Notes under the pieces: model-generated
What the model was told of the DNA's origin: nothing
Seen by the model: only the letters and a program-made list of their open reading frames with translations
Database searches by the model: none
Source: a virus
Lineage: Duplodnaviria; Heunggongvirae; Uroviricota; Caudoviricetes
Reading direction: 5' to 3' (one strand)
Length of the DNA stretch: 64,000 bases
IMG/VR virus record: IMGVR_UViG_2526164662_000021
Location: 32,001 to 96,000 of that record
Made by a program: the position numbers and the translations under genes
Shown: piece by piece, positions 11,519-64,000 of the stretch
Numbering within the stretch: the stretch's first letter is position 1
How the letters are laid out: each line of letters starts with the position of its first letter

Positions 11519-11535
11519 AATGCTCTAATAAATTT
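11519..11535 (+). promoter_or_regulatory. C1-repressor operator-like 17-mer (immI)
   Basis: AATGCTCTAATAAATTT, 16/17 to the P1 C1 operator consensus ATTGCTCTAATAAATTT. Confidence 0.65.
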
Positions 11536-11734
11536 GTATTTTTAAGTCACGAATGCTATCTTTTCGCATCATATTGACCTTTTAATCGTTCAGGCTTATA
11601 GTTCCGCCGTCGTAGCAAATTCTGCGACCGGGTTTAGCAGCCTGAATGATTGTGCGGACAGCCGCAGATATCCGATATTGCGGTATTTTTGTGTCCGTAA
11701 AACCGCGTTACGCCCAAATTATGGTGGGGCGTGA

Positions 11735-11795
11735 TGGGGAGGCTTCGGCCTGCTGGTTTCACAATCGCCAGTCTGCTAACCCCGTCACGTCCTGC
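11735..11795 (+). ncRNA. c4-like antisense RNA element (candidate)
   Basis: TTCACAATC (11758-11766) and CTGCTAACC (11773-11781) are reverse-complementary to GTTTAGCAG (11801-11809) and GATTGTGA (11832-11839, overlapping the icd RBS GAGG), in antiparallel order. Confidence 0.4.
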
Positions 11796-11849
11796 CACCT
11801 GTTTAGCAGCGGGTAGCAGGTTGTTAAACCTGATTGTGAGGCCGTAACT

Positions 11850-12071
11850 ATGGTTAATGCCAATCCTTGCGCACGCCCAGAATTCATCTGGCGTTTCTAT
11901 TCCTGTAAAAAACACCACTATCACTTCGTTATCGCAGCAACTGAAGACGAAGCACGCTCTCAATTGCCTGATGGCCCCTGCATTTTTACTGCCCGTTTTT
12001 CAACTAACTCGCGCAATTCACTTAGTTACTGGAGCCTCCCCTTCTCTGCCGACGTTCAGGGGGGTTTATGA
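11850..12071 (+). CDS. icd: Icd-like cell division inhibitor
   Basis: 73-aa ORF (PEFIWRFYSC...HYHFVIAATEDEARSQL); stop overlaps ant start (ATGA); paralogue at 61645-61866. Confidence 0.65.
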   Translation: MVNANPCARPEFIWRFYSCKKHHYHFVIAATEDEARSQLPDGPCIFTARFSTNSRNSLSYWSLPFSADVQGGL

Positions 12072-13111
12072 AAAAACCTCTCGTCACCCGTAATGACATA
12101 GCCGAAGCGATCGCCCTGCATACTGCCTGTATACCGACACGGGAGATCCCCGGCGCAATTGCCAACTATTTCATGATAACCAGGCGTTTTTATACCCGAA
12201 CAGATAAGGCTGTGATCAACAGGCTACTGATAGCCGAGATCAGGGATTATTTGATTGAACAAGGACGTCTACGTTACGCAACGGTGGCAGCAGAAATGAG
12301 AAAGGAGGCACATAGAATGACCAGTAATAATTTGAATGTTAAAAAACCAGCACCTGTTGCTTCAGCAACGCCAGCACCAGCCGTGAATGTCATCCCCACC
12401 ACCGGAGACACAATCGACAGCCTGACACTGTTAAAGATGGTCAATGAAGCGCGTAAGTTATGTGGGGAACCAGAGGTTCGGAACAACAAATTCATCGAAA
12501 AAATACTCGACGAATTAGAAGGTGAGGACGGTTACACAAAAAGTGCAACCGTGCCGCCAGGTGGCGGTACGCCTATGGTTGTCATAACCATGACCTACAA
12601 ACAAGCCCTGCGAGTCGCCGCGCGCGAATCGAAAGCGGTCCGCCGTTCGCTGATCGACAAACTGGAAGAATTGCAGCAGGCAAACTCCCCTACCCCATCG
12701 ATCCCCCAAACATTACCAGAAGCCCTACGCCTGGCTGCCGAGTTGGCAGAACAGAAATTGCAGCTGGAACAACAGCTGGTGGCCGCAGCCCCTAAAGTCG
12801 ATTTTGCCGACCGGGTATCAGTGGCTAATGGAATCCTGATCGGGAACTTTGCAAAGGTCGTTGGACTTAAGCAAAACGCCCTTTTCTCATGGTTGCGCCA
12901 GAACGGCATTCTCATGGCTTTTGGTGCGCGCAAAAACGTACCGCGCCAGCAGTACATTAACGCCGGGTATTTCACGGTGAAAGAAGTGGTGCTGGATGAT
13001 GAAAATGGCTACCAGATACGGCTGACGCCCCAATTAACGGGTAAAGGCCAGCAGTGGTTAACTCGCAAGCTACTTGATGCTGGTTTGTTAAAACCAGTAG
13101 CAATAGGTTAA
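12068..13111 (+). CDS. ant: Antirepressor Ant with C-terminal KilAC domain
   Basis: 347-aa ORF translationally coupled to icd; C-terminus AAAPKVDFADRVSVANGILIGNFAKVVGLKQNALF...GYFTVKEV... matches KilAC antirepressor domain. Confidence 0.7.
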   Translation: MKKPLVTRNDIAEAIALHTACIPTREIPGAIANYFMITRRFYTRTDKAVINRLLIAEIRDYLIEQGRLRYATVAAEMRKEAHRMTSNNLNVKKPAPVASATPAPAVNVIPTTGDTIDSLTLLKMVNEARKLCGEPEVRNNKFIEKILDELEGEDGYTKSATVPPGGGTPMVVITMTYKQALRVAARESKAVRRSLIDKLEELQQANSPTPSIPQTLPEALRLAAELAEQKLQLEQQLVAAAPKVDFADRVSVANGILIGNFAKVVGLKQNALFSWLRQNGILMAFGARKNVPRQQYINAGYFTVKEVVLDDENGYQIRLTPQLTGKGQQWLTRKLLDAGLLKPVAIG

Positions 13112-31399: not shown

Positions 31400-33660
31400 A
31401 AGAGCTGTGCTATGGATCTGTTTGCAGTGGAATTGAAGCCGCGAGTATTGCCTGGGAACCGTTGGGTATGCGTCCGGCGTGGTTTGCTGAAATCGAGCCT
31501 TTTCCATCTGCCGTTCTTGCGCACCGCTGGCCCCATGTCGCCAACCTTGGCGACATGACAAAACTTGCCAAAAAAGTCCTGGCTGGGGAAATCGAATCCC
31601 CTGATGTGCTCGTCGGGGGAACACCTTGTCAGGCATTCAGTATCGCTGGATTACGTGGTGGGCTTGATGATGAGCGTGGCGCGCTAACTTTAAAGTATGT
31701 GGAGCTTGCAAATGCAATTGACGACAAACGGGCTGAGTCATTTCTCAAACCGACAGTTATCGTCTGGGAAAATGTCCCAGGAGTCCTGTCATCGGCAGAT
31801 AACGCCTTCGGATGTTTCCTTGCCGGATTGGCTGGAGAAGATGCGCCATTTGAACCAGGTGATCGACCTGAATCAGGAAAAAGTAACGCGTTCTGGCGGT
31901 GGGATGGCAAAACCGGTTGCCATGCTCCAAAGTGGCCGCAGTGTGGTTGTATTTATGGACCGCAGCGAAAGGTGGCCTGGAGAATCCTTGATGCCCAATA
32001 CTTCGGAGTGGCACAACGACGCCGACGCGTGTTTGTTGTCGCAAGTGCTCGAACAGACCTCGATCCCGCAACGGTACTTTTTGAGTTCGAAGGCGTGCGC
32101 CGGAATATTGCGCCGAGCCGAAAAAAGAAGGAAATCGCTTCCGCCATTATTGCAAATGGCGCTGCAATCAGTGGCGAAAGCCTAAATCCATGCCTACACG
32201 CTGACATGCCACCCGGTATGAAATCGACGAAAGCCGTAAACGCTTTCAGGATGGCAGCATTTGGGGAATATATTGACGATGAAACCGCATCGACAGTAAA
32301 GGCAAGAGATTTTAAAGATGCCACTGACCTTGCCGTTTTTAGCAGCACAGGAGCAGGTTTTTGGTCAGAAGGGCATGGTACATTGCGGGCACGTGAGCAA
32401 GAAAGCCATGAGCATCTTGTTACATTGGCTTTTCCTGAGCGTATGAGCGGTACACAACATGCTGCAACTAAGAATACTTCACCATCTCTGATGGCTAAAA
32501 ATCCAACAGCTGTTTGCTATGAAGTAAGAAACGCAGAAGTAGCTGTCCGCCGTCTTACCCCTGTCGAATGTGAAAGGCTGCAAGGTTTTCCTGATGGGCA
32601 TACGTTGATCCCGACGGAAAAGCGTAAAAAAGTTAATTCAGATGAACTGGCATATCTTCGCAATCACTATCCAGATTTAAGCGAAGAAGAGGCCGCGATG
32701 CTTGCAGCTGACGGACCGCGTTACAAAGCGATCGGCAATAGTATGGCAATACCAGTAATGCGCTGGATTGGCGATCGGATTACTAAGGCCGTATGTCGGC
32801 AGAAAGAAGGAAGTGAAACAAAAGAGCGAAAAGTTAAACCAGCGGCAGAATTCGAACGGTCCATATTCAAATGGGCTGGTGGAAAATTTGGTGTTCTGGA
32901 ACAAATCTTTCGCTATTTGCCAGAAGGGAAGCGCCTGATCGAACCTTTTGTCGGTGGCGGAGCTGTCTTCACGAATGCCGGATACCAGGAAAATCTGCTA
33001 AATGATGTGAATGCTGACCTGATTAACTTTTACAAGACTCTGCAACGCGAGGCGCATTCACTTATCACACTGGCGCATCGGTTTTTCCAGGACTACAACA
33101 CACAGGAAGGATACCTGGCAGTACGGAATGCGTTTAACAAACAAGTCTATGATGATTTACATCGCGCAGCGGCGTTTTTGTTCCTGAACCGACATTGTTT
33201 TAACGGATTGACGCGTTACAACCAGGCCGGTGAGTTCAATGTCGGTTATGGGAAGTATAAAACTCCGTATTTCCCATTACAGGAGATGGAAGCCTTCCTC
33301 GGTGCGGAAGGGCGTTCTGAGTTTGTATGTGGTGATTTTGCTGCGGTGATTGAAGCTGCCGGAGAAGGAGATGTCATCTTCTGTGATCCGCCGTATGAAC
33401 CGCTTCCAAATACAGAGGGATTCACGAACTATTCCGGTCATGACTTTAAGTTTGAAGAGCAAAAACGCCTGGTGTCTCTGTTGACGGATGCTCATCGCCG
33501 AGGTGCAAAGGTTCTCATTACTAACAGTGGCGCGCCAAACATCAGAGAGCTTTATCATGACAATGGCTTCAGAGTGGAACCTCTTTTTGCCAGACGTTCT
33601 GTGTCTTGTAAGGGGGACACTCGAGGTGTTGCTCATGACGTCTTAGGCATATTGCTCTAA
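31396..33660 (+). CDS. dmt: Bifunctional DNA methyltransferase (C5-cytosine N-terminal half, Dam-like N6-adenine C-terminal half)
   Basis: 754 aa; PCQ motif [12 protein letters not shown] (C5-MTase); [18 protein letters not shown] and DPPY (CDPPYEP) in the C-terminal half (Dam family); same length as P1 Dmt as recalled. Confidence 0.85.
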
Positions 33661-34332: not shown

Positions 34333-34408
34333 GATGGTGTAGCTCAGCGGTTAGAGCGGTTGACTGTTAATCAACGGGTCGATGGTTCAAATCCATCCAC
34401 CATCGCCA
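34333..34408 (+). tRNA. tRNA-Asn (anticodon GTT)
   Basis: Manual cloverleaf: acceptor GATGGTG/CACCATC, D-stem GCTC/GAGC, anticodon stem GTTGA/TCAAC, loop CTGTTAA, T-arm GATGG-TTCAAAT-CCATC, encoded CCA. Confidence 0.85.
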
Positions 34409-34410
34409 AT

Positions 34411-34486
34411 GCCGGTTTAGCTCAGTTGGTAGAGCGCCTGCCTTGTAAGCAGGATGTCAGCGGTTCGAGTCCGTTAACCGGCACCA
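34411..34486 (+). tRNA. tRNA-Thr (anticodon TGT)
   Basis: Manual cloverleaf: acceptor GCCGGTT/AACCGGC, anticodon stem CCTGC/GCAGG, loop CTTGTAA, T-loop TTCGAGT, encoded CCA. Confidence 0.85.
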
Positions 34487-36691: not shown

Positions 36692-36767
36692 GGCCCTTTA
36701 GCTCAGTGGTTAGAGCTGGCGACTCATAATCGCACGGTCACCGGTTCAAGTCCGGTAGGGGCCACCA
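36692..36767 (+). tRNA. tRNA with CAT anticodon (Ile2-lysidine type or Met)
   Basis: Manual cloverleaf: acceptor GGCCCTT/AGGGGCC, D-arm GCTC-AGTGGTTA-GAGC, anticodon loop CTCATAA, T-arm ACCGG-TTCAAGT-CCGGT, encoded CCA. Confidence 0.8.
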
Positions 36768-56734: not shown

Positions 56735-57187
56735 ATGTTACTTAACTGGCAGGGACGCCACTTCATGGAAATAAATCACTCACGAATAACATCGTACGAG
56801 ATTGCGGATTACATGATCCGCACTAAATCTCTTCTATCAGCGAAAGAACTCGCAGCAATTCTTGAAAAGGAATACCCGCATCTGGATGTCGATAAGCGCG
56901 ATGTTTATCTGCGCTTAAAGGCTATTGCTGTGTCTAAGTATTCGTCTGTTTTGATTGATGACAGTACACGCCCACGTAGATTTCAGATCCACTCTCTGAA
57001 TCCTGAATTCTTTCGCCGTAGCCGCGCTCCGCGCCGGTTTGATGAAAAACTCCAGAACGAACTCTATATGACGCAGGACGAAAAGGAACGCCGGGAGCAC
57101 CAGCCTTGGGTAATGGCGCGTCAACTTTTCAATAAGGTGGCCCGTCAGCACCGTCATTACGGTAATGCCACATCCGCACGTATGTGA
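56735..57187 (+). CDS. lpa: Late promoter activator Lpa-like protein
   Basis: 150-aa ORF between phd-doc region and pacA, preceded by a C1 operator-like site; assignment by position and size as recalled for P1, not by motif. Confidence 0.4.
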   Translation: MLLNWQGRHFMEINHSRITSYEIADYMIRTKSLLSAKELAAILEKEYPHLDVDKRDVYLRLKAIAVSKYSSVLIDDSTRPRRFQIHSLNPEFFRRSRAPRRFDEKLQNELYMTQDEKERREHQPWVMARQLFNKVARQHRHYGNATSARM

Positions 57188-57189
57188 CT

Positions 57190-58510
57190 GCTCCCCGCCC
57201 GGTTGGGCGAGGCTTCCCACATCTCAGGCCGCAACCGTCTGTACGACGGATTTACGCTGGCCTCCATGGGCAGAGACGACGAGTCCCGCCGCCTTTAGTT
57301 CCAGTATCCCTTTTTGCCGGATGTTGAGTGCCGCATTGATATCGCGGTCATGCTCTGCTTCACATTCAGGGCATCGCCAGATGCGTTTATGAAGCGGCAT
57401 TTCCGGCATTTTGTAACCACAACAATGGCACGTTTTCGAACTGGCAAACCACTGGTCGAGTTTTACCAGGTGAACGCCTTTTTCCGCTGCCTTGTACTCC
57501 AGCTTTGTGATGAAGCTATGCCAGCCTGCATCACCTATTGCTCTTGCCAGATTGTGGTTTTTCATCATGTTGGCTGTTTTCAGCGTCTCGACAATTACCG
57601 CTTGGTTTTCGTCAACAATTGTACGAGAAAGTTTATGTTGAAAATCAGCACGGGCATTCGCTACCCGTTCGTGTATGGCCGCAAGACGGATTCTGGCCTT
57701 TTTACGATTCGCGCTTCCCTTTTGCTTGCGGGATAGCGCTTTTTGTTTGCGTCGCAGATTACGGCTGGCATTGATGAGATGGCGGGGATTCGCAATTTTT
57801 GCCCGGTCAGACCTGATGGCATAGTGCTCAAGTCCCATATCCACACCAGTAATCTTTTCTTCCTCCAGATACGCAGGTTTCGCTGGTGTGGGAATACCGT
57901 CTTCACAAAGGATGGATGCGTAGTATTTCCCGGTGGCACTGCGAGTGATTGTTATGCTCGTCACTTTTCCCGTCATTACACGGTGTATACGCGCTTCTAT
58001 CGGTGCCAGCTTAGGAATTTTGATGGCATTCTCCAGTACTTTAATCCCGACACAATGGTAGCTCGATTGTTTCCCATGTTTACGTTTAAACGTCGGGAAC
58101 CGGGCTTTCAGCTTCGGATTAAAAAAGTTGGAAAACGCCACATCAAGATTAATCACCGCCTGTTGCAATGCCATTGAATCAAATTCTTTAAGCCAGGCAT
58201 ACTTACGGGACTTCTTCGCCACAGACAACAACGGTTTTAAATCTTTACGCGGACTTAAATTCACTCCGTGTCGCTGGTAAGCGTGTTTTTTGATGTGAAG
58301 AGCTTTGTTGTACGCAAAACGCACGGCGCCGAACTGGGCGTTGAGATACTCAGCCTGTTTAGTGGTTGGATAGATGCGTACTTTTGTCGCTCTTAACATA
58401 GTCACCGCTCATTGATACAGGTTTTTATGCTAACACCGTAATGATTTTTTTTTAAAGCCCTGTGGGCTTTCCCGCCTTTCCTCCCCGCCCGCATTGGGCG
58501 AGGGTTCTCG
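57190..58510 (-). mobile_element. IS200/IS605-family tnpB-only element
   Basis: tnpB flanked by direct copies of a hairpin-containing ~23-bp sequence: CTCCCCGCCCGGTTGGGCGAGG (57191-57212) and CTCCCCGCCCGCATTGGGCGAGG (58481-58503); no tnpA. Confidence 0.6.
57224..58405 (-). CDS. tnpB: TnpB (IS605 OrfB family, RuvC-like nuclease with C-terminal zinc finger)
   Basis: 393 aa; N-terminal MLRATKVRIYPTTKQ; C-terminal CHCCG...CPEC zinc finger and DRDINAALNI RuvC-III-like motif. Confidence 0.8.
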   Translation of the reverse strand: MTMLRATKVRIYPTTKQAEYLNAQFGAVRFAYNKALHIKKHAYQRHGVNLSPRKDLKPLLSVAKKSRKYAWLKEFDSMALQQAVINLDVAFSNFFNPKLKARFPTFKRKHGKQSSYHCVGIKVLENAIKIPKLAPIEARIHRVMTGKVTSITITRSATGKYYASILCEDGIPTPAKPAYLEEEKITGVDMGLEHYAIRSDRAKIANPRHLINASRNLRRKQKALSRKQKGSANRKKARIRLAAIHERVANARADFQHKLSRTIVDENQAVIVETLKTANMMKNHNLARAIGDAGWHSFITKLEYKAAEKGVHLVKLDQWFASSKTCHCCGYKMPEMPLHKRIWRCPECEAEHDRDINAALNIRQKGILELKAAGLVVSAHGGQRKSVVQTVAA

Positions 58511-58606: not shown

Positions 58607-59800
58607 GTGACCTGGGACGATCACAAGAAGAATTTTGCTCGCCTGGCGCGAGATGGTGGTTACACCATCGCACAGTATGCCGCCGAGTTTAATCTTAACC
58701 CTAATACCGCACGTCGTTATCTCCGTGCCTTCAAAGAAGACACCAGGACTGCGGACAGCCGCAAGCCAAATAAGCCAGTCAGGAAGCCACTAAAAAGCAT
58801 GATCATTGATCACTCTAATGATCAACATGCAGGTGATCATATTGCGGCTGAAATAGCGGAAAAACAAAGAGTTAATGCCGTTGTCAGTGCCGCAGTCGAG
58901 AATGCGAAGCGCCAAAATAAGCGCATAAATGATCGTTCAGATGATCATGACGTGATCACCCGCGCCCACCGGACCTTACGTGATCGCCTGGAACGCGACA
59001 CCCTGGATGATGATGGTGAACGCTTTGAATTCGAAGCTGGCGATTACCTGATAGATAACGTTGAAGCGCGGAAGGCCGCGCGCGCTATGTTGCGTCGGTC
59101 CGGGGCCGATGTTCTGGAAACCACTCTTCTTGAAAAGTCTCTTTCTCATCTCCTTATGCTGGAGAACGCCAGGGATACGTGTATTCGCCTGGTGCAGGAA
59201 ATGCGCGATCAGCAAAAAGACGATGATGAAGGTACTCCGCCTGAATACCGTATCGCGAGCATGCTAAACAGCTGTTCCGCGCAGATAAGCAGCCTGATCA
59301 ACACCATTTACAGCATCCGGAATAACTATCGAAAAGAAAGCCGGGAGGCGGAAAAGCACGCTTTGTCTATGGGGCAAGCTGGCATTGTTAAGCTGGCATA
59401 CGAACGAAAGCGTGAAAATAACTGGTCAGTGCTGGAAGCGGCTGAATTCATCGAGGCGCATGGAGGAAAAGTGCCGCCCCTGATGCTGGAGCAAATCAAA
59501 GCCGATCTGCGTGCTCCTAAGACCAATACCGATGACGAGGAAAACCAAACAGCATCTGGCGCTCCATCACTTGAAGATCTGGATAAAATCGCGCGAGAAC
59601 GGGCCGCCAGCCGCCGCGCTGATGCCGCATTGTGGATTGAGCATCGTAGAGAAGAAATTGCCGATATCGTCGATACAGGCGGTTATGGTGATGTCGATGC
59701 GGAAGGCATATCAAACGAAGCATGGCTTGAACAGGATCTGGACGAAGACGAGGAGGAAGACGAAGAAGTTACCCGCAAACTGTACGGGGATGATGATTAA
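58607..59800 (+). CDS. pacA: Terminase/pacase small subunit PacA
   Basis: GTG start with AAAGGAAG RBS; 397 aa ([10 protein letters not shown]...); contains the pac site; acidic C-terminus. Confidence 0.85.
58800..58986. promoter_or_regulatory. pac packaging site (clustered TGATCA/G hexamers with GATC Dam sites)
   Basis: Four TGATCA at 58800, 58808, 58819, 58834 and TGATCG/TGATCA at 58930, 58942, 58953, 58981, inside pacA. Confidence 0.75.
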
Positions 59801-61284
59801 TGGCCAGAAGTTGCGTAACGGACCCACGTTGGCGCGAGCTGGTGGCGCTATATCGTTATGACTGGATTGCGGCCGCTGATGTGTTGTTTGGGAAGACACC
59901 AACCTGGCAGCAGGATGAGATCATTGAGTCCACGCAGCAGGACGGCAGTTGGACAAGTGTGACCTCCGGCCATGGTACTGGTAAGTCGGATATGACGAGT
60001 ATTATTGCAATACTCTTCATCATGTTTTTCCCCGGCGCTCGCGTCATTCTGGTCGCTAACAAAAGACAGCAAGTCCTTGATGGTATTTTCAAATACATAA
60101 AGAGCAATTGGGCTACTGCTGTTAGCAGATTCCCGTGGTTGTCGAAGTATTTCATTCTTACAGAAACGTCTTTTTTTGAGGTGACTGGCAAGGGTGTTTG
60201 GACAATATTGATAAAGTCCTGTCGCCCCGGAAATGAGGAGGCGTTGGCTGGTGAACACGCCGATCATCTCTTGTATATCATCGACGAAGCGTCGGGTGTG
60301 AGTGATAAAGCATTCAGTGTGATAACAGGTGCGCTGACCGGTAAGGATAACCGTATTCTGCTTCTTTCCCAGCCTACGCGACCTTCAGGCTATTTCTACG
60401 ATTCACACCACAGACTAGCTATTCGCCCGGGAAATCCTGATGGATTGTTTACTGCGATAATACTGAATAGTGAAGAATCTCCGCTTGTAGATGCAAAATT
60501 TATACGAGCAAAACTTGCGGAGTATGGCGGTCGTGATAACCCCATGTACATGATCAAAGTACGTGGTGAATTTCCCAAATCGCAAGATGGCTTTCTTCTT
60601 GGTCGTGATGAGGTTGAGCGGGCGACGCGGCGAAAGGTCAAGATTGCCAAAGGATGGGGCTGGGTTGCATGTGTTGACGTTGCTGGTGGCACAGGACGAG
60701 ATAAGTCCGTTATTAATATCATGATGGTGTCCGGCCAGCGAAATAAACGCCGTGTAATCAACTATCGTATGCTGGAATACACAGACGTTACAGAAACGCA
60801 GTTAGCCGCCAAGATTTTCGCAGAATGTAACCCAGAACGGTTCCCGAACATAACCATAGCTATTGATGGCGATGGCTTGGGGAAATCGACGGCTGATCTG
60901 ATGTACGAACGCTATGGTATTACCGTCCAGCGTATCCGCTGGGGTAAAAAGATGCACAGCCGTGAAGATAAAAGCCTTTATTTCGATATGCGCGCTTTCG
61001 CGAATATTCAGGCGGCAGAAGCTGTAAAATCAGGGCGTATGCGGCTTGATAAGGGGGCTGCGACTATAGAGGAAGCATCAAAGATACCGGTCGGGATAAA
61101 TTCCGCAGGTCAATGGAAGGTGATGTCAAAGGAAGATATGAAGAAAAAACTCAACCTGCACTCACCGGACCATTGGGATACATATTGTTTCGCTATGTTG
61201 GCGAACTATGTTCCCCAAGATGAAGTGCTTAGCGTCGAAGACGAAGCGCAGGTTGATGAAGCTCTGGCATGGCTTAATGAGTAA
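59800..61284 (+). CDS. pacB: Terminase/pacase large subunit PacB
   Basis: 494 aa; start overlaps pacA stop (TAATG); Walker A-like GHGTGKS and Walker B-like [11 protein letters not shown]. Confidence 0.85.
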
Positions 61285-61288
61285 AAAA

Positions 61289-61305
61289 CTTGCTCTAATA
61301 AATTG
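61289..61305 (+). promoter_or_regulatory. C1 operator-like 17-mer upstream of second icd-ant module
   Basis: CTTGCTCTAATAAATTG (15/17). Confidence 0.55.
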
Positions 61306-61436
61306 TGTTTTTTGACTGCCGATGTTACATTGAACCTGACCTCTTGCGCCTTGAGGCATTTTCGGTTTATGCTTATCAGGCACCTCATTAAAACGGGTGC
61401 CGGGATTGGAACCCCGGATAATGTCAAAGGCGACAC

Positions 61437-61460
61437 AGACGCCAAAAGCGTCTTTTTTTG
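61437..61460 (+). terminator. Terminator/attenuator-like hairpin in leader
   Basis: AGACGC-caaaa-GCGTCT followed by TTTTTTT; an analogous hairpin plus T-run sits in the first module leader at 11662-11690. Confidence 0.45.
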
Positions 61461-61534
61461 TGTCATGCCATCGCACGGCCATACGTAGCGTTTAGCTCAG
61501 AGATCAATGGTAGTGCTGGCTGGGCTGCCGAAAG

Positions 61535-61592
61535 GCAGGCCGGTTCCCTTTGACGCCGGTAGTTCCAACCCAGTCAGTGCTACCGCCATTGA
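61535..61592 (+). ncRNA. c4-like antisense RNA element of second module (candidate)
   Basis: CCTTTGAC (61548-61555) is reverse-complementary to GTCAAAGG (61626-61633, overlapping the icd2 RBS AAGGAGG); GCTACCGC (61578-61585) pairs with GCGGTAGC (61608-61615). Confidence 0.35.
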
Positions 61593-61644
61593 GATTGGAA
61601 CCTCACGCGGTAGCTCCTTAACTTAGTCAAAGGAGGCTGCCATT

Positions 61645-61866
61645 ATGGCTACTATCCCTACCCCAACTCATCCTGAATTTATCTGGCGCTTTTACTCCTG
61701 CCAGAAACGTCACTATCACTTCGTTATTGCACCGACAGAAGATGAGGCTCGCTCTCAGCTTCCTGATGCACCCTGTATTTTCTCCGCCCGTTTTTCTACT
61801 GATTCGCGCAATTCTCTCAGTTACTGGTGCCTCCCTGTTAACGCTTCTGCTCAGGAGGGACTATGA
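61645..61866 (+). CDS. icd: Icd-like protein, second copy
   Basis: 73 aa (PEFIWRFYSCQKRHYHFVIAPTEDEARSQL), about 75 percent identical by eye to the copy at 11850; coupled to downstream ant-like gene. Confidence 0.6.
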   Translation: MATIPTPTHPEFIWRFYSCQKRHYHFVIAPTEDEARSQLPDAPCIFSARFSTDSRNSLSYWCLPVNASAQEGL

Positions 61867-62975
61867 GAACGTCATTAGTCACCCGTGAAGAGATGATTGA
61901 GGCAATTGAACAGCACACTGCCTGTATCAGTACCAGGGATATACCAGGCGTTATGGCCAACTACTTCATGATCACCAAACAACTTTACCGGAGAAAGGAC
62001 AAGAACGCTGTTCACCGCATTCTGTTGTCTGATATCCGCGAATACCTGCTCGAACAGGGTCATCTGAATTACGCAACCGTCGCAGCCGAAGCACGCAAGG
62101 AGGCACACAGAATGAAAGCAACTAACGTTAAATCAGAAAAAATTCATGCACCTTCAGTTCAGGAATCGGAGCTGGTGGTTGTTCAGAATCAGTCTGATGA
62201 AATTCCCGTTCTGGAATGGCTGGGAGTGCGTGTAGTGACAACTGAGACTCTTGCTAAAGGGTATGGGACCGATGAAGCGAATATTCGTAAAAATTTGTCT
62301 CGCAACCCCGATCGCTTTGAAGAAGGTAAGCATTACTATCTCTTAACTGGTTCAAAATTAAAGGAATTTAAAATGCTAGTGACTATTAGTCACTTGGTTA
62401 GCAAATATACAAGTCAGGTAATTCTCTGGGCCGAGCGCGGAGCGGCACGCATGTCTAAGATCGTGGACACAAATGAAGCGTGGGCATTCTTTGAAAAACT
62501 GGAAGACAGCTACTTCCGACAAAAAGAACAGCAACCGATCGCAATCCCCCAGACGCTTCCAGAAGCTCTGCGCCTGGCTGCCGAACTGGCTGAACAAAAG
62601 CAGCTTCTGGAACAGAAAGCCCACCAGCTAAATCAGCAGCTGGTGGCCGCCGCTCCTAAAGTCGATTTTGCCGACCGGGTATCAGTAGCTAAAGGGATCC
62701 TGATTGGGAATTTTGCAAAGGTTGTTGGACTTAAGCAAAACGCGCTGTTTGCCTGGTTACGGGAGAACGGCATCCTGATAGCGTCCGGTGGACGTAAAAA
62801 TGTGCCGTTCCAGCAGTACATCAATGCGGGGTATTTCACGGTGAAAGAAGTGGTGCTGGATGATGAAGATGGCTACCAGATACGGTTGACGCCTCAATTA
62901 ACGGGTAAAGGCCAGCAGTGGTTGACGCGTAAACTGCTCGATGCTGGCTTGTTAAAACCGGTGGCGGCTGAATAA
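61863..62975 (+). CDS. ant: Antirepressor Ant-like protein with KilAC domain, second copy
   Basis: 370 aa; N-terminus parallels Ant at 12068 (HTACI.TR.IPG..ANYFMIT); C-terminal KilAC domain nearly identical to Ant1; extra central insert. Confidence 0.65.
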   Translation: MRTSLVTREEMIEAIEQHTACISTRDIPGVMANYFMITKQLYRRKDKNAVHRILLSDIREYLLEQGHLNYATVAAEARKEAHRMKATNVKSEKIHAPSVQESELVVVQNQSDEIPVLEWLGVRVVTTETLAKGYGTDEANIRKNLSRNPDRFEEGKHYYLLTGSKLKEFKMLVTISHLVSKYTSQVILWAERGAARMSKIVDTNEAWAFFEKLEDSYFRQKEQQPIAIPQTLPEALRLAAELAEQKQLLEQKAHQLNQQLVAAAPKVDFADRVSVAKGILIGNFAKVVGLKQNALFAWLRENGILIASGGRKNVPFQQYINAGYFTVKEVVLDDEDGYQIRLTPQLTGKGQQWLTRKLLDAGLLKPVAAE

Positions 62976-62980
62976 TGGAA

Positions 62981-63010
62981 GAATGCCCGGTTGATGCCGG
63001 GCATAATTTA
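62981..63010. terminator. Bidirectional terminator between ant2 and c1
   Basis: ATGCCCGG-ttgat-GCCGGGCAT hairpin with flanking A/T runs. Confidence 0.5.
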
Positions 63011-63859
63011 TTGCGCGCTTTCGGGGTTGTCGTTTACTGGCTGCCCCTTCTTGGTTTTACGGCTGCGTGTAACTGATGCGGCTGACTTAACCTTTTTCTC
63101 TTCGCGAGTGATGGCAATTTGTTTTTTTACATTTTCAATATCTGCCAGGCGATATATTTTTGCTTGCGGCCAGCGGTCGCAGATGATCGGTTCTATAGAG
63201 TCATAAAGGCTAAATTTTGCTTTCTCGAATTCACCGTTGATGATAATTCCATCACGGAGAGTTTCATCGCAGATAAACACACCACATAGCGGCACATGGT
63301 AACTAACTGATTTACCATCATTGTAGTTAGGGCTACTAGAAATGTAATGGACGCGCAGCATTGTTTCGCTAAAGCCGTGTACGCGCATACGGAATTTTTC
63401 ATCCTCCGGGTACTGCTTCATTAGCTCTTTTGTTGCTTCCAGGTTCTCTATGTATTTCGCACTGTGCTCATTGATCCCCGCGCTTTTCTGGATGCGAATG
63501 TCCTTATCAATCAGATGAATAATGCGGCCAGCGGTCATGTTGACGCTGTTCACAGCTTCTGTCTGATAAGTCGTAACCTTACGCACACCGCGAAGGATGT
63601 TAGGCACTGGATATAAAATAGTCTTTGGGATATTGAGGTCTGGGTACTGTTCCAGTTCCCGCGCCATTAAAGTCCATTTATCAATTTCAGCCTGAATGCT
63701 GTCCGTTTCTTTGAACGGCAGAACGACAACCGGGCGAACAGGACGACCGTCGCTGGCGGCATCAACGTGTTGGGCGCGTGCAACAGCTTTTTTTAGAAAG
63801 AGATCCCTGAAGCTGACGAACTCCTGGTACAGTTGTTCGCCGTAGACATAATTTATCAT
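63008..63859 (-). CDS. c1: C1 repressor of lysis (P1 C1-like)
   Basis: 283 aa (MINYVYGEQLYQEFVSFRDLFLKK...); GGAGGAGG RBS; operator-like 17-mer upstream; matching operator-like sites across the window. Confidence 0.85.
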   Translation of the reverse strand: MINYVYGEQLYQEFVSFRDLFLKKAVARAQHVDAASDGRPVRPVVVLPFKETDSIQAEIDKWTLMARELEQYPDLNIPKTILYPVPNILRGVRKVTTYQTEAVNSVNMTAGRIIHLIDKDIRIQKSAGINEHSAKYIENLEATKELMKQYPEDEKFRMRVHGFSETMLRVHYISSSPNYNDGKSVSYHVPLCGVFICDETLRDGIIINGEFEKAKFSLYDSIEPIICDRWPQAKIYRLADIENVKKQIAITREEKKVKSAASVTRSRKTKKGQPVNDNPESAQ

Positions 63860-63953
63860 TGATCCTCCTCCAGAATTGACATGGCCAACAACTCACAGCG
63901 GATTACACTGGGAGTTGTTGGCAACCATTATAGAAGGATCCAACGAAAATAAT

Positions 63954-63970
63954 AGATTTATTAGTGCATT
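63954..63970 (-). promoter_or_regulatory. C1 operator-like 17-mer upstream of c1 (autoregulatory region)
   Basis: Reverse complement AATGCACTAATAAATCT (14/17). Confidence 0.5.
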
Positions 63971-64000
63971 TATTGTGAGTCTGGCTGGTTAGTGGCCATG

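Follow-up and report, generated by a model that had tools for sequence, protein, structure and literature searches.

The 64,000-nucleotide stretch analyzed here (the window; positions 32,001 to 96,000 of IMG/VR record IMGVR_UViG_2526164662_000021) belongs to a P1-like phage-plasmid and carries, between the terminase gene pacB and the c1 repressor gene, a block of 1,724 bp (61285-63008) that is most probably an intact, selected second copy of the immI circuit of phages P1 and P7, with a specificity orthogonal to that of the first copy. The block is designated module 2, and the copy of the circuit in the canonical immI position is designated module 1. An earlier sequence-only reading had proposed that a complete second immI-type module lies at this site, a proposal borne out by Rfam matches, by one-to-one colinearity with the annotated immI of P1 and by covariation. 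The anatomy of the block, the membership of its products in RNA and protein families, complementarity, covariation, intactness, purifying selection and prevalence were computed, while C1 binding, RNA processing, the interaction of Ant with C1, a function of the short RNA as a decoy and the ecological role are what we infer.

The site was defined by a BLAST comparison of positions 91000-94800 of P1 with the window. Positions 1-2207 of this P1 segment corresponded to 59078-61284 (99.4% identity, pacB side) and positions 2233-3224 to 63009-64000 (97.8% identity, c1 side), the block standing in place of the 25-bp interval between the stop codons of pacB and c1 of the annotated P1 reference. The alignment agreed with the earlier remark that P1 has no gene at this position. 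In the list of open reading frames (ORFs), pacB occupies 59800-61284 and is followed by c1 on the opposite strand (63008-63859, minus strand), which lies in the flank of 97.8% DNA identity to the P1 c1 region. The block is absent from the P1 and P7 references, in which only the C-terminal part of ant was matched (86%), by their immI ant. Of the limits originally given to the module, 61289 is where an operator-like 17-mer starts and 62975 is where the stop codon of ant ends. Inspection of the ends of the block by eye revealed no transposase, no integrase and no direct repeats flanking it. A scan for terminator-like structures found a GC-rich 9-bp hairpin at 62983-63004, between the convergent ant and c1 genes, that is possibly a two-way terminator. 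If this hairpin terminates poorly, transcription of the derepressed module would read antisense into c1.

The leader of module 2, already described as structured, was found to contain two RNAs of known families. When the whole window was scanned with Rfam at gathering thresholds, four leader-RNA matches were obtained: two C4, one c4-a1b1 and one isrK. The IsrK/SeqA-type leader RNA of module 2 spans 61380-61459 on the plus strand (RF01394; match 61380-61458 to model positions 1-77, 62.6 bits, gathering score 50) and is followed on the same strand by a C4-type antisense RNA at 61503-61590 (RF01695; full-length match, 77.1 bits, gathering score 45). Within the isrK match are the upstream targets, a1 TTGGAAC (61406-61412), located in a hairpin loop, and b1 GTCAAAGG (61423-61430). 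The element is closed by an intrinsic terminator, the internal hairpin and T-run of the earlier reading, which was found both in the terminator scan and in the fold and consists of a stem at 61437-61453 followed by six T residues. The minimum free energy of the C4 fold was -46.5 kcal/mol, compared to -28.7 kcal/mol for shuffled sequences (z = -5.0), and both recognition elements were unpaired, with b' CCTTTGAC (61547-61554) in a hairpin loop and a' GTTCCAA (61562-61568) in a single-stranded bulge.

The downstream targets (61595-61636, plus strand) are exactly complementary to these elements. Target a2 TTGGAAC is at 61595-61601, and b2 GTCAAAGG, at 61626-61633, overlaps the Shine-Dalgarno sequence of icd (AAGGAGG, 61630-61636) and is complementary to the loop of C4, in agreement with the ribosome-binding-site-complementary segments of the earlier reading. 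A complementarity search placed the partners of CCTTTGAC and GTTCCAA at precisely two pairs of sites, a1/b1 upstream and a2/b2 downstream; the pairing was 15/15 with a2/b2 and likewise 15/15 (7/7 and 8/8) with a1/b1. The leader carries the C4 antisense RNA of its own operon, as in immI-type operons of P1 and P7.

Two genes follow the leader, as had been read from the ORFs. The icd-like gene (61645-61866, plus strand) encodes 73 residues that match the NCBIfam phage_ICD_like family and are 81% identical to Icd of module 1. The antirepressor gene ant (61863-62975, plus strand) encodes 370 residues assigned to PHROG 63 (anti-repressor Ant), with an Ant1-type extension (residues 1-83), a Pfam ORF6N domain (residues 117-200) and a KilAC domain (PF03374, residues 258-359, E = 1e-31). 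The two genes overlap by the ATGA at 61863-61866, from which ant appears to be translationally coupled to icd. An internal start is conserved within ant at ATG 62112 (M84), with a Shine-Dalgarno sequence AAGGAGG (62097-62103) 8 nucleotides upstream, at codon 84 as in ant2 of P1. The gene is therefore predicted from its sequence to yield a long product and an in-frame short, Ant2-type product. Overall, Ant of module 2 (Ant-2) was 56% identical to that of module 1, the first 85 or so residues and the KilAC C-terminal third being conserved.

Module 2 is headed by the C1-operator-like 17-mer CTTGCTCTAATAAATTG (61289-61305, plus strand) that had been claimed for it, which agrees with the P1 C1-operator consensus at 15 of 17 positions. 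It has the orientation of Oc4/Op51 of P1 and aligns with the operator of module 1. The window contains 13 such sites with three mismatches or fewer, where 0.39 would be expected by chance, and the operator was kept in all 34 of the inserts examined. Judged by this sequence, C1 would bind 61289-61305, and the product of the adjoining c1 gene is presumed to be both the source of that repressor and the target of the module 2 antirepressor. The putative C1-controlled promoter (61303-61331, plus strand; -35 TTGTGT, 17-bp spacer, -10 TACATT), the equivalent of P2c4/P51a by positional homology, has a predicted -35 element that overlaps the operator. A putative second promoter (61344-61373, plus strand; -35 TTGCGC, 18-bp spacer, -10 TATGCT), the equivalent of P1c4/P51b by alignment with module 1 and P1, has a predicted start near 61380, the 5' end of the isrK match.

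Module 1, the canonical immI copy, extends from 11519 to 13111 on the plus strand and is the first of the two icd-ant cassettes that the window had been said to hold. It comprises an operator (11519-11535), an Rfam c4-a1b1 match (11596-11648), a C4 match (11717-11802, 69.6 bits), icd (11850-12071) and ant (12068-13111). Its C4 elements, CTGCTAA and TCACAATC, are exactly those found in P7 and unlike those in P1, even though the flanks on the pacB and c1 sides are 98-99% P1-like, a further indication of mosaicism between the P1 and P7 lineages. Correspondingly, the targets of module 1 are the P7-type TTAGCAG and GATTGTGA, whereas those of module 2 are TTGGAAC and GTCAAAGG.

The specificity of the two locks was compared by the number of the 15 recognition positions that form Watson-Crick or G-U pairs. 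Each C4 paired with its own targets at 15/15 positions, while pairing between module 2 and module 1 was 8/15 in either direction and that between P1 and P7 was 12/15. P1 and P7 are classically heteroimmune through c4, and the lower value for the two modules argues, at the level of sequence, that their locks do not cross-react. The leaders had been called unrelated in sequence, which did not hold: they are colinear homologues that both match the C4 model, share the positions of promoters, operator and targets and differ in their recognition sequences. The accompanying suggestion that the two modules answer to different antisense RNAs did stand at the sequence level.

The order of elements in module 2 is that of the P1/P7 immI operon: operator, two promoters, upstream targets, C4, downstream targets over the icd ribosome-binding site, icd-ant overlap and internal Ant2 start. 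The spacing is also nearly identical to that of P1 immI (operator to a1, 117 and 115 nucleotides; a2 to b2, 31 and 29; b2 to the icd ATG, 19 and 18, respectively). In P1, C4 RNA represses Ant synthesis and the complex of Ant1 and Ant2 is the antirepressor of C1 (PMC8546580). Several differences were found, 1) immI of P1 and P7 lies between the sim genes and kilA-repL, whereas module 2 lies between pacB and c1, 2) the C4 RNA of module 2 belongs to an 88-nucleotide lineage and that of P1/P7 to an 86-nucleotide lineage with other recognition sequences, 3) the upstream target copy matches isrK in module 2 and c4-a1b1 in P1/P7, 4) the middle of Ant-2 is an ORF6N domain, unlike that of P1/P7 Ant, and 5) module 2 coexists with a canonical P7-type immI in one genome. 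Because it lies between pacB and c1 and the canonical position holds module 1, module 2 is an immI-type module rather than the immI locus.

A sensitive DNA search with the leader returned 134 phage records, including RCS47, JL22, 673R5, D6, many Shiga toxin (Stx)-converting phages, phiP27, a Salmonella phage and P4. In all 11 fetched loci with an isrK match, this match lay 24-107 nucleotides upstream of the C4 match (at 1320-1397 in the phage P4 locus L011, where the pair corresponds to seqA and CI, at 1372-1460 in locus L014 and in nine other loci). P1 has c4-a1b1 in the place of isrK, 673R5 has C4 and no isrK match at the gathering score, and the isrK match overlaps the c4-a1b1 match in a Klebsiella phage. 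That isrK is so regularly paired with C4 suggests a single functional element described by both models, isrK and c4-a1b1. The isrK family is not in the Rfam C4 clan, yet it marks the upstream target copy (a1/b1, P4 seqA) of C4/CI-type RNAs.

The downstream targets were located at fixed offsets of +5 and +36 after C4 and were complementary to it in every locus despite widely differing sequences. The formal covariation count was made on an ungapped alignment of the 11 sequences. All 462 of 462 cells were paired, and both sides had changed in 13 of the 15 intermolecular pairs (6/7 a'-a2 and 7/8 b'-b2). When the partners were slid by 1-3 columns, only 28-46% of the cells paired, and none of 500 shuffles reached the observed values. 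The cells of the C4 stems were 100% paired, with compensatory changes, and the upstream copy (isrK positions 26-27 and 41-44) paired fully with a'/b' in 10 of the 11 loci. An exact-match search for targets missed the 673R5-type allele, which has G-U wobbles and was recovered when wobble pairs were counted.

The distribution of the block was determined in an IMG/VR sample of 80 loci with a C1 protein 99-100% identical to that of the window, 76 of which had both flanks. The junction was empty and P1-type (24-25 bp) in 43 of these and occupied by a block of 1,684-1,728 bp in 33. In PLSDB, 314 plasmids had an empty junction and 299 had at least 80% of the window's block, while 251 of 5,426 complete E. 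coli genomes (about 4.6%) had an occupied junction. About 40-45% of P1-like elements carry the block. Inserts at the same site with the same gene content and 93-99% identity occur in RCS47, JL22, vB_EcoM-673R5, pTZ20_1P and about 300 PLSDB plasmids; the recognition elements of RCS47 differ from those of the window in a and those of 673R5 in both a and b.

In the aligned leaders, the stretch that begins with the operator and stops just short of a1 was nearly identical, as was the sequence starting at the icd ribosome-binding site, and the segment between them fell into five types. Four types are all the combinations of a TTGGAAC or TTGAGAC with b GTCAAAGG or GCAAAAGG, and the fifth is TTGGCCT with GTCTAAGG, which pairs partly through wobbles. 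The three copies of each element (a1, a' and a2; b1, b' and b2) always change together across the types. The combination found in the window, TTGGAAC with GTCAAAGG, is a rarer one (2 of 34 sampled). The length of the terminator T-run also differs among several leader variants of the IMG/VR loci (L015-L094). The downstream genes are well preserved: icd has 73 codons for amino acids in 34/34 inserts, with a median ratio of nonsynonymous to synonymous substitution (dN/dS) of 0.08, and ant is intact in 33/34 (one is truncated), with a median of 0.27 (0.07, 0.34 and 0.03 for the N-terminal, middle and C-terminal thirds). Selection that both keeps the lock working and alters its code is pointed to. 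The intact reading frames and the purifying selection rule out a decaying remnant.

Several observations weigh against the interpretation of module 2 as a second immI circuit directed at C1, 1) the two mismatches of the operator to the consensus fall at both of its end positions, and its core has an A-to-G change (TAATGAATT) in 3 of 30 leader variants, 2) a generic scan of the leader with a consensus promoter called neither promoter, so that both, having been placed by alignment to the annotated promoters of P1, stay predictions, 3) the middle of Ant-2 is an ORF6N domain, which Pfam did not detect in the P1-type Ant of module 1, and since the middle has been replaced the target of Ant-2 could differ from that of P1 Ant, 4) the pairing between the window and RCS47 is 14/15 and some pairs of alleles differ by only one mismatch and one wobble, so little that two types may belong to a single immunity group, and 5) a constitutively expressed C4-like species did not counteract IsrK in prophage Gifsy-1 (PMC4825925), so that the decoy model adopted below is not established even there.

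The replaced middle of Ant-2 leads to the alternative that survives best, although it is unlikely: the circuit works but Ant-2 acts on the repressor of another element, such as a lambdoid or Stx prophage or a satellite, rather than on a P1-family C1, making the block a cross-induction device. The combination of isrK and C4 in the leader does belong to the lineage of Stx/lambdoid phages, P4 and D6 and not to that of P1/P7, and ORF6N is typical of lambdoid antirepressors. Moreover, the a element TTGGAAC is common to phiP27 and a Klebsiella phage, and the C4 of module 2 pairs at 13/15 positions with the phiP27 targets. However, the parts of Ant-2 that are most conserved, the N-terminal 83 residues and the C-terminal KilAC third, are close to Ant of module 1, the module carries a P1 C1 operator, and the block adjoins c1 in P1-like genomes only.

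The constraint on icd could also be taken to mean that the block is mainly a pair of toxin and antisense RNA, in which Icd, a cell-division inhibitor, is the toxin, C4 is the antitoxin and ant is a passenger, serving plasmid maintenance or abortive infection. This is improbable. With a dN/dS of 0.08, icd is the most strongly constrained gene of the block, its family is annotated as host cell division inhibitor, and the RNA would directly occlude its ribosome-binding site. However, ant is intact in all but one of the inserts, is under purifying selection and has a conserved internal start, and the C1 operator connects the block with the choice between lysis and lysogeny. That the block is a duplicate gained through recombination, now decaying or silent and devoid of present function, is so improbable that it can be set aside, since, even though P1, P7 and others, in all about half of P1-like elements, lack the block and one insert has a truncated ant, the three-way covariation of the recognition elements is perfect across five alleles and strong purifying selection, intact ORFs and wide distribution all speak for a working element.

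If module 2 is a second immI-type circuit, transcription would start at two promoters, one that overlaps the C1 operator and is presumably shut in the lysogen, and another that starts at about 61380. Many transcripts would end at the terminator near 61459, giving a short IsrK/SeqA-type RNA that displays a1/b1, and those that read through would be processed to a stable C4-type RNA of about 80 nucleotides. The a' and b' elements of C4 would then pair with a2/b2 on the same family of transcripts and cover the ribosome-binding site of icd. The block on icd would silence ant as well, because ant is apparently coupled to it through the ATGA overlap. In P1, the silencing of ant is reinforced by transcriptional polarity. 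In a cell that lacks the matching C4, or in which this RNA is titrated, Icd and both forms of Ant, long and short, would be made and Ant would inactivate C1. Release could be triggered by infection of a cell whose P1-like prophage lacks the matching allele or by a burst of a1/b1 decoy RNA; the terminated RNA would be a transient decoy, allowing ant to escape while transcription surges.

A resident prophage would need both C4 species to hold this phage in check and, conversely, this prophage as the resident would silence incoming phages that use either lock. By analogy with P1 and P7, a phage with two locks should overcome lysogens that lack either one, because the matching C4 is needed to silence the incoming ant. 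The allelic diversification at the site is what such a superinfection contest would produce, and a role in contests of this kind may be suggested by the same analogy. The earlier idea that a second antirepressor beside c1 could be an anti-immunity device against related prophages follows the classical logic of P1/P7 heteroimmunity and would fit this diversification.

A described parallel is isrK-orf45-anrP of the Salmonella prophage Gifsy-1, where, as in module 2, an IsrK-type RNA with its own terminator and read-through that yields a stable processed RNA precede an antirepressor gene. One promoter gives both the short IsrK RNA and the read-through transcript (Hershko-Shalev et al. 2016, PMC4825925), and the short IsrK in trans turns on translation of the downstream antirepressor, which leads to prophage induction. 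The authors considered IsrK to be a structural homologue of P4 SeqA and the stable processed STnc1160 to correspond possibly to P4 CI (PMC4825925). Hfq binding and trans-activation of downstream translation by an isrK-type RNA are known only for Gifsy-1 (PMC4825925). The comparison was made by mapping the published numbering onto the related Salmonella phage 118970_sal3 rather than onto the Gifsy-1 sequence; in this phage the published partners of IsrK G28/G31 fall where a1 pairs with a'. Unlike module 2, Gifsy-1 has no icd described, its antirepressor feeds an antiterminator (AntQ) and there is no P1 C1 operator.

The immunity region of phage P4 (seqA - CI/seqB - seqC) has isrK and C4 matches in the same order as module 2. 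The P4 CI elements pair at 15/15 positions with upstream and downstream copies at the same offsets, and P4 and module 2 have the sequence surrounding the start of the downstream gene in common, whereas the P4 replication operon takes the place of icd-ant and there is no C1 operator. Control in P4 is described, in the summary given in PMC4825925, as premature transcription termination. In the icd-ant module of plasmid prophage D6 and D6-like plasmids, the leader from isrK to the icd start is 91.5% identical to 61379-61707, and D6 has the a/b type TTGAGAC/GCAAAAGG, also found at the pacB-c1 site. The D6 module differs in its location, close to ref and simB, and in its ant, which is another and shorter one. 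A second c4-icd region has been noted in D6-like plasmids (PMC6799933).

The literature searched contained passing mentions of the pacB-c1 block and no functional or comparative analysis of it. The insert is mentioned in one sentence by Venturini et al. 2019 (PMC6906374), for RCS47 and pTZ20_1P. Existing annotation at the site consists of ant in RCS47 and of 'ash', Icd-like and KilAC proteins in RefSeq. The parts of the block and its mechanism are all of known kinds.

Other ORFs in the leader were considered as genes. An ORF of 39 residues at 61507-61626, the 'ash family protein' of RefSeq, matches Pfam Phage_ASH (PF10554) and lies wholly over the C4 RNA. It was rejected as a conserved protein because its length varies in relatives, where it may have as few as 14 residues or be fused with the gene that follows (in some loci the frame stays open for more than 166 residues), and because it overlies C4. 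The best reading of the PF10554 match is that annotation pipelines have translated an RNA gene. The minus-strand ORFs at 61162-61482 and 61206-61466 over the leader, which have no annotation support in relatives, were rejected as mechanical ORFs.

The AUG in the 5' stem of C4 opens a frame that, in the window and in loci L001-L014, is always in frame with the downstream gene and begins exactly 46 codons before it. This frame is open into the downstream gene in P4, phiP27, the 673R5-type loci and sal3 and stops early elsewhere (14-39 residues). It corresponds to the translated orf45 of Gifsy-1 in position and length (the distance of 46 codons to the next gene being matched through 118970_sal3) and also to Pfam Phage_ASH. 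Translation of orf45 has been demonstrated in Gifsy-1, where the authors interpreted the region as the translated orf45 and not as a C4 RNA (PMC4825925).

The window has two further features of note outside the modules. A solo TnpB gene of the IS200/IS605 family (57224-58405, minus strand, 393 residues), with Pfam matches to OrfB_IS605, Cas12f1-like TNB and HTH_OrfB_IS605 and no TnpA ORF seen adjacent to it, lies between lpa (56735-57187) and pacA, which occupies 58607-59800 in the ORF list; the same site holds only about 85 bp in RCS47 and in a close relative of the window. Rfam also identified three tRNA genes, at 34333-34405, 34411-34483 and 36692-36764.

The basic picture of such circuits is unchanged by module 2. 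Among relatives within the P1 family, it is the antisense RNA lock, and not the repressor, that is known to determine immunity. Additional immunity groups would therefore be defined by a second lock that has at least five alleles, which could explain coexistence, displacement and induction among these elements. A broader proposal, which we regard as tentative and rather doubtful, is that P1-like phage-plasmids carry a combinatorial, RNA-encoded immunity code, in which an orthogonal C4 lock beside c1, with reassorting elements, creates an asymmetric superinfection hierarchy where two-lock phages overrun one-lock lysogens and not the reverse, and the short IsrK-type RNA serves as a decoy in trans. 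Such a decoy could cross-talk with the IsrK/C4 modules of resident Stx or lambdoid prophages that share its recognition elements.

The role of the upstream target copy has been left open for P1 and partly resolved for Gifsy-1. The alleles at the pacB-c1 site are a natural series in which three copies of each element are coordinated, and could be used to probe this copy (a1/b1, IsrK, SeqA). In E. coli and Salmonella, genes for resistance and virulence are commonly carried on P1-like phage-plasmids and, if the immunity code is true, the allele at this site would predict which resistance-bearing P1-like plasmids displace or induce one another.

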